A stretch of 64,000 nucleotides of DNA from an uncultured Actinomycetota bacterium. Its GTDB lineage: Bacteria > Actinomycetota > Actinomycetes > JAFAQI01. Below are positions 49,463 to 52,539 of this stretch, in pieces. The notes beneath the pieces are model-generated. The model was not told where the DNA came from, did not search any database, and was given only the letters and a program-made list of their open reading frames with translations. Numbering within the stretch: the stretch's first letter is position 1; every line of letters starts with the position of its first letter. A program made the position numbers and the translations under genes. The stretch is taken from the NCBI GenBank assembly GCA_963770565.1, contig CAVYQE010000011.1, positions 512,001 to 576,000 on the forward strand, in the 5' to 3' direction.

Positions 49463-49687
49463 CCGGCTGGACCGCCGACTACACGGCCGAGGGCAAAGCC
49501 GGGTCTGGTCTCACTGTGAACAGTTAGTACTGGACTACTCAGTACGGTTCACACCGCGCCTAACGGGCTTGGGCTATTTCGTCATCCTCCGGAGGTCGTT
49601 TCGAGCCTGATGCCGGCGTGGCGCCGGACGCCGCTGCGCCGGACGACTGGCTCAAGCCGTTGCCGCCCAGTGGGAGCACACTCCGGG

Positions 49688-50347
49688 TCAGGACTCCAGA
49701 TAGCGGAGGACGGCGAGCACCCGTCGGTGGTCGGCGTCTGAGGGTGCCAAACCGAGTTTGGCGAAGACGTTGGCGACGTGCTTCTCGACTCCCCGTTCCG
49801 AGATCACAAGGGTGCCGGCGATGGAGCCGTTCGACTTGCCTTCGGCCATCAGGGAAAGGACGTCGCGCTCTCTGGGGGTGAGAGCGTCGAGGCCATCGGT
49901 GCGCCGGGCGGCCTCTCGGAACAGTTGCGTGACGACCTCGGGGTCGAGGGCGGTGCCGCCGGCCGCCACCCGGCTCAGCGCGTCGACGAACTCCCCAACA
50001 TCGCCGACGCGGTCCTTGAGCAGGTATCCGATGCCGGCGGCACCGCGGCTGGATGCCGCTTCAAGGAGCTCGGCGACGTGGCGGGTCTCGATGTACTGAG
50101 AGAAGACCAGCACTCCGGTGCCGGGGTGGTCACGGCGGATGGCGATCGCGGCCCGGATGCCCTCGTCGGTGTAGTCGGGCGGCATTCGCACGTCTACGAC
50201 GGCAGCATCCGGCTCGTGCTCGTCCACGGCCGCTCGCAGCGCCTCGGCATCGCCTACCGCGGCCACCGTCTCGTGTCCCCGGTCGGCGAGGATCTCAACC
50301 AGCCCGGCCCGGATGACTGCGGAGTCTTCGGCGATAACGATCCGCAT
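49688..50347 (-). CDS. NarL/LuxR family response regulator
   Basis: MRIVIAEDS, DVRMPP, GYLLKDRV, LTPRERDVL, HRRVLAVL. Confidence 0.93.
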   Translation of the reverse strand: MRIVIAEDSAVIRAGLVEILADRGHETVAAVGDAEALRAAVDEHEPDAAVVDVRMPPDYTDEGIRAAIAIRRDHPGTGVLVFSQYIETRHVAELLEAASSRGAAGIGYLLKDRVGDVGEFVDALSRVAAGGTALDPEVVTQLFREAARRTDGLDALTPRERDVLSLMAEGKSNGSIAGTLVISERGVEKHVANVFAKLGLAPSDADHRRVLAVLRYLES

Positions 50348-50366: not shown

Positions 50367-51260
50367 TCAGACGTGAGAGGGCAGTACGACGGTGACCACC
50401 GTGGGGCCGCCGGCCGGACTTTCGACCTGCAGCCTGCCATCAACTGTCTTGACCCGCTCTGCGAGACCGGCCAGGCCTCCGCCGGGCTCGAGCCGGGCGC
50501 CGCCGGGTCCTTCGTCGCTGACCCGCATCGTCACCAGGCCGGCGTGGTTGAGCACCTCCACCTTGGTATGCTGGGCACCGCTGTGCTTCGCGGCGTTCGT
50601 GAGCAGTTCGGCAGCGCAGAAGTAAGCCATCGTCTCGATGGCAGCGGACGGACGCTCCGGCAGGCCGACGACCAGTTCGACTGGCAGGTCGCTGCGTGCC
50701 ACGAGGCCGGCGAGGGCGGCACCGAGGCCTTCGTCCAGGGCCGGCGGATGGATACCTCTGGCCAGGTCACGCAGTTCGGTGATCGCCTCCATCGCGCCGC
50801 GGCGGGCCGCGGTCACCAGTTCCAGGACCCGGTCGAGATCGGCGCCCCCTGGCCTGGCCGCCGAGGTGTTGAGATGGTCCTGAGCGAGCCCCAGCTTCAT
50901 GACGACAGCGACCATCTGGGCTTGGGCTCCGTCGTGCAGATCCTGCCCGATGCGGCGTAACAGGGCTGCCGCGTCGTCCACCACGACAGCTCGGGATCGT
51001 TGCAGCTCGCGCACGCGCTCGACGTTCTTGGGGGCATCCCGGAGTAGGTTCCAGCGCGGCACCAGGTAGGCGAGCGAGCCGTTCAGCCCGGCCGGCACGA
51101 ACAGGAACACCCCCCACCACTGACCCAAGGCCAGCAACACCGCCCCCCAGACCACGAAACAGACCGCGGCAACCCAGCGCGCGACTGCCACGCCTTTGAC
51201 ATGACGCGCCCCGAACGCCGTGAAGGTGCCCCTGGTGGCCGATGGACCCGCCTCGGTCAT
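50367..51260 (-). CDS. HisKA_3 sensor histidine kinase
   Basis: QDLHDGAQ, ARGIHPPAL, ELLTNAAKHS, DEGPGGA, GGLAGLAERV; two N-terminal TM segments. Confidence 0.9.
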   Translation of the reverse strand: MTEAGPSATRGTFTAFGARHVKGVAVARWVAAVCFVVWGAVLLALGQWWGVFLFVPAGLNGSLAYLVPRWNLLRDAPKNVERVRELQRSRAVVVDDAAALLRRIGQDLHDGAQAQMVAVVMKLGLAQDHLNTSAARPGGADLDRVLELVTAARRGAMEAITELRDLARGIHPPALDEGLGAALAGLVARSDLPVELVVGLPERPSAAIETMAYFCAAELLTNAAKHSGAQHTKVEVLNHAGLVTMRVSDEGPGGARLEPGGGLAGLAERVKTVDGRLQVESPAGGPTVVTVVLPSHV

Positions 51261-51506
51261 ATCGAGACCTACGTCGAGAGGTTGGCGTTCTTGGGGGCAT
51301 CCCGGAGCAGGTTCCAGCGCGGCACCAGGTAGGCGAGCGAGCCGTTCAGCCCGGCCGGCACGAACAGGAACACCCCCCACCACTGACCCAAGGCCAGCAA
51401 CACCGCCCCCCAGACCACGAAACAGACCGCGGCAACCCAGCGCGCGACTGCCACGCCCTTGACATGACGCGCCCCGAACGCCGTGAAGGTGCCTCTGGTT
51501 GCTGAT
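51023..51506. repeat. 221-bp direct duplication (51023-51243 / 51286-51506)
   Basis: Five mismatches, all at synonymous third codon positions. Confidence 0.95.
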
Positions 51507-51550
51507 AGAGCGACGTCGGTCGGTCGCTGATGTTCACTCATGTCGGGCAT
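51269..51550 (-). CDS. Small two-TM membrane protein identical to the kinase N-terminal domain
   Basis: Strong RBS AAAGGAGG; 93 aa, of which 73 are identical to the kinase. Confidence 0.8.
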   Translation of the reverse strand: MPDMSEHQRPTDVALSATRGTFTAFGARHVKGVAVARWVAAVCFVVWGAVLLALGQWWGVFLFVPAGLNGSLAYLVPRWNLLRDAPKNANLST

Positions 51551-51630
51551 CGGACTGCCTCCTTTGATCTTCGGCATCGACCACCTTGGTCGTCCACGGT
51601 TCGATCTTCGTCCCCAACGAGCCACAGATT

Positions 51631-51674
51631 CCACCGTGCGAGCACCCGAATCCGGGGTACGGCTAGCACGGTGG
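51631..51674. promoter_or_regulatory. Inverted repeat, candidate response-regulator operator
   Basis: CCACCGTGC (51631) ... GCACGGTGG (51666) upstream of the three-gene operon. Confidence 0.4.
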
Positions 51675-51840
51675 TCATCGCCTGACATAAGCATCGAACC
51701 GGGAAGTGCGCCCGCCCATTTACACCGGCTTCCGGACGCTGCCGCCAGACCGATCGGTCAGTGAATGCCGTTCTAGGGCACTTGAACTGACGCTCTGATG
51801 GGTTGTTGGGCCTGGGATGAGCGCCGGAGTCCGGATCGAG

Positions 51841-52539
51841 TCAGTGGGGCTCGCTGACCGCCTCGGTCTCGAAGCGGTAGCCCATCCCCGTCTCGGTCAG
51901 CAGGTAGCGCGGGCGCGAGGGGTCGGGTTCGAGCTTGCGCCGCAGCTGCGCGACGTACACCCGCAGGTAGTTGACCTCGGTGGAGTACGCCGGGCCCCAG
52001 ACGTCGTGCAGCAGCTGGCGCTGCGTGACCAGCTTGCCGGGATTGCGGACCAGCACCTCGAGCAGCTGCCACTGCGTCGGCGTGAGTTTGATCTCGCCGT
52101 CCGAGCGGGTCCGCACTCGCTTGGCGGCGAGGTCGATGGTGAAGTCGTCAGTGGTGATCACCGGCGCGTCCTGGGCCGGCGCGGCCCGCCGGACCGCCGC
52201 GCGCAGTCGCGCGAGCAGCTCGTCCATCCCGAACGGCTTGGTGACGTAGTCGTCGGCACCGGCGTCGAGGGCGGCGACCTTGGTTACCTCGTTCTCGCGT
52301 GCCGACAAGACGATGATCGGTGCACTCGACCAGCCGCGAATGCCGCGAATCACCTCGGCTCCATCCATGTCGGGCAGGCCGAGGTCGACGATCACGACGT
52401 CCGGCCGCTCGCGGGCGACCGTGGCGAGCCCGCTGATCCCGTCACTTGCGGTCTTCACGTCGTACGAGCGGGCGGTGAGGTTGATCCGGAGGGCGCGGCA
52501 GATCGCGGCATCGTCGTCGATCACGACCACCTTGGTCAC
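51841..52539 (-). CDS. kdpE: KdpE-like OmpR family response regulator
   Basis: DLGLPDMDG, KVAALDAGADDYVTKPF, YLRVYVAQLRRKLEPDPSRPRYLLTE. Confidence 0.88.
   Translation of the reverse strand: MTKVVVIDDDAAICRALRINLTARSYDVKTASDGISGLATVARERPDVVIVDLGLPDMDGAEVIRGIRGWSSAPIIVLSARENEVTKVAALDAGADDYVTKPFGMDELLARLRAAVRRAAPAQDAPVITTDDFTIDLAAKRVRTRSDGEIKLTPTQWQLLEVLVRNPGKLVTQRQLLHDVWGPAYSTEVNYLRVYVAQLRRKLEPDPSRPRYLLTETGMGYRFETEAVSEPH

Follow-up and report, generated by a model that had tools for sequence, protein, structure and literature searches.

We found, in the genome of an uncultured soil Actinomycetota bacterium (lineage JAFAQI01), a sensor kinase gene preceded by a free-standing copy of the part that encodes its own membrane hairpin. 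The locus lies in a window of 64,000 nt (assembly GCA_963770565.1, contig CAVYQE010000011.1, positions 512,001 to 576,000), to which all coordinates below refer. The kinase, K, follows a small open reading frame (ORF), S, and about 240 nt encoding the kinase membrane hairpin occur twice, 263 nt apart, which is almost certainly a conserved partial duplication. With the same near certainty, the two copies have been repeatedly homogenised by gene conversion, with eroding edges. As the best explanation overall, towards which the sequence comparisons lean slightly, S would be a conversion-matched small membrane protein acting as a partner of the kinase.

The kinase membrane hairpin is encoded twice

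S, K and a response regulator form, in this order, one cassette on the minus strand (Table 1). This is the anatomy given in a preliminary description made from the letters of the sequence, and the strong ribosome-binding site that it had placed ahead of the small gene was confirmed as AAAGGAGG, 7 nt ahead of the S ATG. The repeat search returned a single direct repeat of 236 nt with 96% identity and a spacing of 263 nt. Residues 16-88 of S (SATRG...DAPKN) are identical with residues 7-79 of K, so that the 73-residue identity reported earlier stands. The base-by-base count gave 10 differences between the copies over the 236 nt. Five of them fall within the first 15 nt and alter four amino acids (S has D V A L, K has E A G P), and the five remaining ones are synonymous (TCA/TCG, GCA/GCC, AGA/AGG, AAG/AAA and CTG/CTA), three in the next 13 nt and only two in the other 208 nt. 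The earlier statement that the differences are five and all synonymous is thus correct inside the identical box, but this box is bounded by the protein identity, and the result is in part self-made.

Table 1 Features of the cassette in the window.
Feature	Position	Strand	Basis or content
S, 93-aa two-helix small ORF	51269-51550	minus	translation; coordinates include the stop codon
K, 297-aa HisKA_3 sensor kinase	50367-51260	minus	Pfam
NarL/LuxR-type response regulator, 219 aa, last gene of the cassette	49688-50347	minus	Pfam Response_reg and GerE
Conserved cassette leader, 122 nt	51551-51672	minus	S Shine-Dalgarno site AAAGGAGG and CCCG(A/G)ATTCGGG palindrome
Upstream copy of the 236-nt direct repeat, within S	51286-51521	minus	repeat search and base count
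Downstream copy of the 236-nt direct repeat, 5' end of K	51023-51258	minus	repeat search and base count
27-nt spacer, absent from the repeat copies	51259-51285	minus	S tail codons, TAG, 8 nt, K start codon (first base)
S stop codon TAG	51269-51271	minus	within the 27-nt spacer

The Pfam search of K gave HisKA_3 with 37.9 bits (cut-off 24, E 2.6e-9) and HATPase_c with 31.1 bits (cut-off 26.4, E 3.5e-7), and that of the regulator gave Response_reg with 49.8 bits (cut-off 30.2) and GerE with 55.1 bits (cut-off 23.5); by these domains K and the regulator belong to the HisKA_3/NarL two-component systems. Residues H109 and N222 of K were invariant in all 24 aligned kinases. The AlphaFold2 model of K (mean predicted local distance difference test score 65.6) exhibited helices at residues 18-44, 48-74 and 76-107 with a hairpin loop of 3 residues, and the hairpin passes, at this modest confidence, directly into the helix of the dimerisation and histidine phosphotransfer domain. 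As modelled, K would fit the intramembrane-sensing architecture, which is defined by two helices joined by a short linker, without an extracytoplasmic domain. The N-terminus of the closest K paralogue in this genome is of another, multi-span type. Searches with S gave no match to Pfam (E <= 0.1) or NCBIfam (E <= 0.01). One candidate family for S, DUF6343 (PF19870), came from an atlas cluster (0.87) in which it is found on 16% of the members; it was rejected, the Pfam scan of S having given 0. The cassette lies downstream of two genes that we take, by eye, to be kdpD and kdpE.

A spurious tandem duplication created in assembly has in its favour that the genome is a draft of 11 contigs, that the repeat is short, and that read-level proof for this very genome is thin (no public run contained more than 0.23 of the sampled words). 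However, the two copies differ at 10 positions, and a 151-nt soil-metagenome contig is identical to 51158-51308, running from the S tail through the spacer into the K start, so that the junction is crossed by an exact match. A second soil-metagenome contig equals 51280-51489 exactly, and both may come from the source sample. Moreover, dozens of independent assemblies contain this junction, and assemblers err, if anything, in the opposite way: the single-copy contig L056 has the same sequence as the duplicated contig L057 from a sister sample. The probability of an artefact is, in our judgement, negligible, in agreement with the earlier argument against an assembly duplication, and the observation of a kinase with an upstream copy of its membrane domain is confirmed.

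Age and concerted evolution of the pair

The preliminary description had made its proposal depend on similar paired loci elsewhere. Of four further genomes from this genus, two have the S-K-regulator order, with kinases 88% and 80% identical to K, and a scan of one genome per prokaryotic species gave 33 further loci. Among the 35 genome-derived loci counted (L049, of the same sequence as L004, was dropped), 28 carry S and K, three are single-copy, three are cut by contig ends and one is unclear. A metagenome scan added 59 contigs. Together, loci and metagenome contigs comprised 49 pairs with both cores intact (44 of them unique) and 14 single-copy loci, 11 of which are short-read contigs. Many of the single-copy forms in short-read data are probably collapsed assemblies, because of the precedent of L056 and L057 given above. 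In the genome loci L028, L029 and L039 a single kinase has the S-type N-terminus and a strong ribosome-binding site; judging by their names and by how long their contigs are, L028 and L039 may be long-read assemblies.

The junction between S and K was compared in 21 loci. The S stop is TAG in all of them, K begins with ATG in 20 and with GTG in one, 4-10 nt past the S stop, and the S tail and the spacer are conserved. Because this junction is the same in all 21 loci, the duplication must be old, and we have little doubt that it was one event. In an unrooted tree built from the catalytic region of the kinases, the single-copy forms branch from within groups of duplicated ones, which argues that the duplicated state lasted through many speciations; one recombination between the repeats would remove the duplication and restore an intact kinase. 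The spacing of the repeat is 263 nt in 23 pairs and 262 nt in 13. The frame relation of S and K therefore varies among loci, and a fusion of the two through frameshifting or readthrough was ruled out.

Although the duplication is shared, the two copies within a locus are more alike than copies of different loci, which is the pattern of concerted evolution. S differs from its own K at 0 to 37 of 195 nt. The nearest sequence was the own K for 28 of the 44 unique S copies, with no copy from another locus closer. When 25 S and 25 K cores were placed in a maximum likelihood tree, the label S or K had to change 22 times, and a tree with S as one clade was rejected (492 log-likelihood units worse, approximately unbiased test p 3.6e-69). 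The pooled synonymous (pS) and nonsynonymous (pN) divergences within pairs were 0.112 and 0.039, against K-K medians between loci of 0.273 and 0.114. Over S codons 19-78 the partners show a mismatch of about 5%, which increases at the edges to 21-52% over codons 10-18 and 12-39% over codons 79-90, reaching about 70-75% outside. A shared junction, similarity within pairs, low pS and a homogenised core with diverged edges were thus all found, and recurrent gene conversion accounts for the protein identity of the copies in the window. Some diverged copies (L026, L031) look imported from other lineages.

The preliminary description had read the same identity otherwise, as direct selection to keep both proteins the same, without gene conversion. 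All five differences inside the identical stretch of the window are indeed synonymous, but this stretch was delimited after its identity had been seen, and synonymous divergence within pairs is low too (0.11 compared with 0.27 between loci), which is the signature of gene conversion and argues against protein selection. Nor was extra constraint towards identity detected, with a pooled pN/pS within pairs of 0.35, close to the 0.42 between orthologous kinases. The 21 pairs with at most 8 differences contain 36.5 nonsynonymous and 47.5 synonymous differences; in L117, a member of a sister family described below, all 7 differing codons are nonsynonymous. Other loci have diverged widely, 9 of the 44 pairs differing at 17-37 of 195 nt and a single locus pair holding up to 17 nonsynonymous differences in 65 codons. 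Selection for sameness therefore appears very improbable as the mechanism.

Similar pairs were found in two further lineages (one alignment for the locus search was overly diverse and was replaced by a narrower one). A sister lineage with 68% identity to K possesses a pair of its own: S2 (about 100 aa) stands ahead of K2, the repeat offset is 289-291 nt and the junction differs. The pair is present in 6 loci, and 2 more loci are single-copy; distances within loci are 2, 4, 6, 8 and 21 of 213 nt. One locus, L147, represents a third lineage (65% identity to K); its S3 and K3 are offset by 382 nt, and the copies differ at 52 of 228 nt (23%; pS 0.39, pN 0.17, pN/pS 0.44). The pair is either very old, with a junction that has diverged, or it arose more than once. 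As a separate observation, the conserved P-R-W that follows helix 2 is P-S-W in all the sister small proteins read (L139, L140, L141, L142, L145 and L146, L139 being the same record as L117) and is kept as P-R-W in every kinase copy, a fixed difference between partners that conversion has not erased.

Relatives of S also occur on their own. Against 1.84 billion representative proteins the S profile gave 39 matches; most are small proteins (80-116 aa) that share the hairpin motifs and fall into clusters below 50% identity, and a few are kinases. The genomes G456 and G457 each have one stand-alone match of about 100 aa and no kinase bearing the hairpin, with no HisKA_3 gene in the flanking DNA of the small-protein loci, and the small protein of L124 in genome G458 has no kinase beside it, a second, weak match lying elsewhere in that genome. 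S may hence have come from a pre-existing small-protein gene, given these free-standing relatives without a kinase. The earlier suggestion of a recent capture of the small gene by the kinase has the timing wrong, as the pair predates many speciations. An older capture would run as follows: S belonged to a free-standing two-helix family, an adjacent HisKA_3 kinase copied it as its membrane module, and later collapse of the repeat gave the single-copy kinases. The predominance of small proteins among the profile matches, the stand-alone members in G456 and G457 and the nesting of single-copy among duplicated forms agree with this order of events, as does, weakly and by eye, an M-Y-x-x-x-E N-terminus shared by the S of the first family and some stand-alone proteins. 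However, a duplication in an ancestral kinase gives the same pattern if the upstream copy keeps the ancestral N-terminus, the trees are unrooted, and the stand-alone proteins could be remnants of decayed cassettes, for which L161 offers a parallel. We regard an origin from the small protein as rather doubtful. L161 (1500-1800) is a cassette altered by deletion, in which a sister-family small ORF runs straight into the middle of a kinase ATPase domain and is left nearly orphaned. Another protein, P0224 (270 aa), has the sister-family hairpin at its N-terminus followed by a Gly/Thr-rich repeat region, apparently extracellular, and no kinase; it is another fusion partner for the hairpin module.

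A possible role for S beside the kinase

The spacing of the two genes bears on how K is made. No Shine-Dalgarno site like that of S was seen upstream of the K start, and this start lies only a few nucleotides past the invariant S TAG, which makes translational coupling likely; the geometry of coupled ORFs was found in all 21 loci. It is reasonably probable from this arrangement that K is produced through termination and reinitiation, at a level below that of S. S would be translated from its strong AAAGGAGG site and K through coupling, leaving S in excess over K. The S hairpin would then pack against the kinase hairpin in the manner of a second kinase protomer, an expectation that follows from S being the same hairpin, and could thereby set or dampen the signal output of K, which lacks an extracellular sensor domain. 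The match between partner and target would then be maintained by gene conversion, as a copy-paste mechanism. S may equally be a decoy or self-mimic, as the preliminary description proposed. A complex prediction of S with residues 1-130 of K returned a score of 0.00, which speaks neither for nor against binding. That S is a functional small membrane protein occupying the position of the second hairpin in the kinase bundle is a proposal to which we give somewhat short of even chances. More tentatively, and on the doubtful side, S could stand for a class of self-derived regulators in which an excess free hairpin joins the kinase bundle, gates signalling and stays matched through conversion. An advantage of the design would be indicated by its presence in three lineages with different junctions, being either very old or repeatedly arisen.

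The 122-nt leader that carries the S ribosome-binding site is itself conserved, with 80% mean column identity in an alignment of 23 leaders. Its CCCG(A/G)ATTCGGG palindrome is a candidate operator for the regulator of the cassette. The 5' end of the leader may pair with the ribosome-binding site, although the paired columns are invariant and hence uninformative; the consensus fold of the leader showed no covariation (term -0.32), and Rfam gave no match in 51200-51900. A promoter scan found no sigma-70-like site, and terminator-like matches inside the repeat were set aside as coding sequence. The public contigs that match the window are fragments; two of them, from RNA libraries, reach no further than the K part (50779-51256), come from relatives and do not demonstrate transcription.

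S could instead serve as a leader ORF only, which would have survived the splitting of the gene by the duplication because it has the promoter-proximal ribosome-binding site, delivers ribosomes to the K start and is kinase-like through conversion alone, its protein having no role. The absence of a Shine-Dalgarno site at K and the invariant stop 4-10 nt before its start are what such a leader would have, and the coupled pair CbrX-CbrA (PMC6591292) is a precedent. The existence of single-copy kinases points the same way, and so does the weak constraint on the parts that S does not share. All S-specific segments have pN/pS of about 1 or higher, namely 1.25 (codons 2-10), 1.5 (codons 11-15), 1.06 (codons 81-88) and 1.29 (codons 89-93), and the juxtamembrane stretch of K has a pN/pS of 0.067 where its S counterpart has about 1 or more. 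The low synonymous divergence at both ends of S (0.155 and 0.128) suggests that the nucleotides around both start sites are constrained.

Changes private to one copy were counted in two data sets. With 50 sequences, 18 synonymous and 18 nonsynonymous changes were private to S and 17 and 11 to K; with 102 sequences the counts were 10 and 19 for S (omega about 0.69, p 0.22) and 12 and 14 for K. The strict private-change count is thus unstable, and S is not distinguishable from neutral in the larger set, as a leader without a protein role would predict. When within-pair differences were instead assigned to one copy with the eight nearest outside copies, S had received 127 synonymous and 136 nonsynonymous changes (omega about 0.39) and K 113 and 93 (omega about 0.30; S versus K, Fisher p 0.16), so that the S core lies near K in constraint. 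In addition, L147 shows no recent conversion, with 52 of 228 nt different between its copies, yet its S is intact, with the pN/pS given above; and the related small proteins that persist without a matching kinase are no leaders there. The number of S-type protein clusters, the separate pairs of the sister lineages and the persistence of the duplicated state also speak for S as a real protein.

Several results weigh against a partner role for S, beside the S-specific segments and the private-change counts. The S core could be constrained indirectly, through the purging of variants that damage K once conversion has brought them into it, and the diverged copies may be imports from other lineages. 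The kinases that have no separate S (L028, L029 and L039) look intact. No conserved target genes were found beside the cassette in 10 loci, and all carriers are uncultured metagenome-assembled genomes. We consider a leader function alone to be unlikely and rank the role of S as a kinase partner, at somewhat below even chances, above it.

Distribution and relation to known systems

The cassette is a rare, self-contained 2-kb module with a patchy distribution. S was found in three of the 36 genomes of the window's own family, all three in one genus, and in none of 400 other genomes sampled across the phylum; in the protein database, S-type proteins of about 93 aa form 171 clusters. Homology of the cassette is sharply bounded, from 51672/51673 to about 49629-49692. 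The flanks differ even within the genus and are mostly unrelated among the 26 loci with full flanks, and a Mutator-family transposase adjoins the cassette in two of 10 scanned loci (L036 and L044). The sharp bounds, the differing flanks, the transposase neighbours and the patchy distribution suggest horizontal movement of the cassette.

Some loci depart from the usual form. One metagenome-assembled genome, G053, has two full cassettes on separate contigs (L034 and L051) and 4 S matches. In L050 (2500-3500), which was excluded from every count, the hairpin occurs more than twice around an N run (an S, an incomplete copy, another S and a frameshifted K), and this may be a triplication or an assembly problem. 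In L024, L054, L055, L072 and L112 the K or S frames are broken by frameshifts or stops, which may be sequencing indels or decaying copies. Across the whole genome, 89 local direct repeats were detected, that of the cassette among them, most of them in the first ~350 kb of contig C1 of G000, with offsets of 98-1400 nt and spans of up to 961 nt; these are presumably genes for repetitive proteins.

Small membrane proteins that modulate sensor kinases are known, as in MgrB-PhoQ, SafA-PhoQ and LiaF-LiaS. S resembles MgrB, SafA and LiaF in being a predicted small membrane protein encoded with or near a two-component system, with possible membrane contacts to the kinase, and differs from MgrB and the other named small modulators in matching no Pfam or NCBIfam family. 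To our knowledge, none of MgrB, SafA and LiaF is a copy of its own kinase. Intramembrane-sensing kinases of the LiaS/BceS type have two helices with a very short loop and usually work with accessory membrane proteins. K is like them in its two helices, its short loop, the lack of an extracellular domain and the pairing of HisKA_3 with a NarL-type regulator. No LiaF-like or ABC transporter gene lies beside the cassette, and the NCBIfam LiaS model scored 36 bits on K against a cut-off of 450. Assignment to the LiaFSR-type three-component systems was rejected, S being without a Pfam or NCBIfam match.

A known parallel is the CbrX-CbrA pair (PMC6591292). There, cbrX of Pseudomonas putida is a 58-aa two-helix ORF translationally coupled to the kinase gene cbrA; the two are co-transcribed, and production of the kinase depends on CbrX. 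As in the cassette, a predicted two-helix small ORF lies directly upstream of a sensor kinase gene. The genes cbrX and cbrA overlap by 17 nt, whereas S and K are separated by a gap of 4-10 nt, and CbrA, unlike K, is a large multi-span kinase with a PAS domain. CbrX is stated in that report to have no predicted paralogue in P. putida. For the mode of evolution, a report on the ATP1A1 duplicates of toad-eating frogs (bioRxiv 10.1101/2020.08.04.234435) describes concerted evolution by gene conversion, with neighbouring copies homogenised over a core and kept distinct at the edges and a few sites, as seen here. In the cassette, unlike there, only a 240-nt part of a gene is doubled, as a stand-alone ORF on one side and a domain of a larger protein on the other, and the products of S and K could plausibly meet in the membrane.

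Full-text literature searches, which leave subscription journals uncovered, returned no account of a kinase gene accompanied by a duplicate of its membrane-domain sequence, and the stems 'duplicat', 'mimic' and 'decoy' are absent from the accessible portion of a 2025 review of small membrane proteins (PMC12648545). The novelty, as far as these searches reach, lies in a pairing, conserved and perhaps recurrent, between a sensor kinase and a separately encoded paralogue of the membrane hairpin that the kinase itself carries.

Two cautions for the reading of genomes follow from the pair. Where neighbouring copies are identical in protein and differ at synonymous sites alone, this signals conversion and not selection for sameness, and short-read assemblies tend to merge such pairs into one gene. 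Kinase-tuning small membrane proteins are a growing field, in which the known ones are unrelated to their kinases; here the candidate partner is a copy of the membrane module of the kinase itself, kept matched through DNA copy-correction. If S binds K, the pair would be a natural counterpart of the designed transmembrane peptides that are used to probe kinase signalling, and gene conversion would be a way to keep two interacting proteins compatible.

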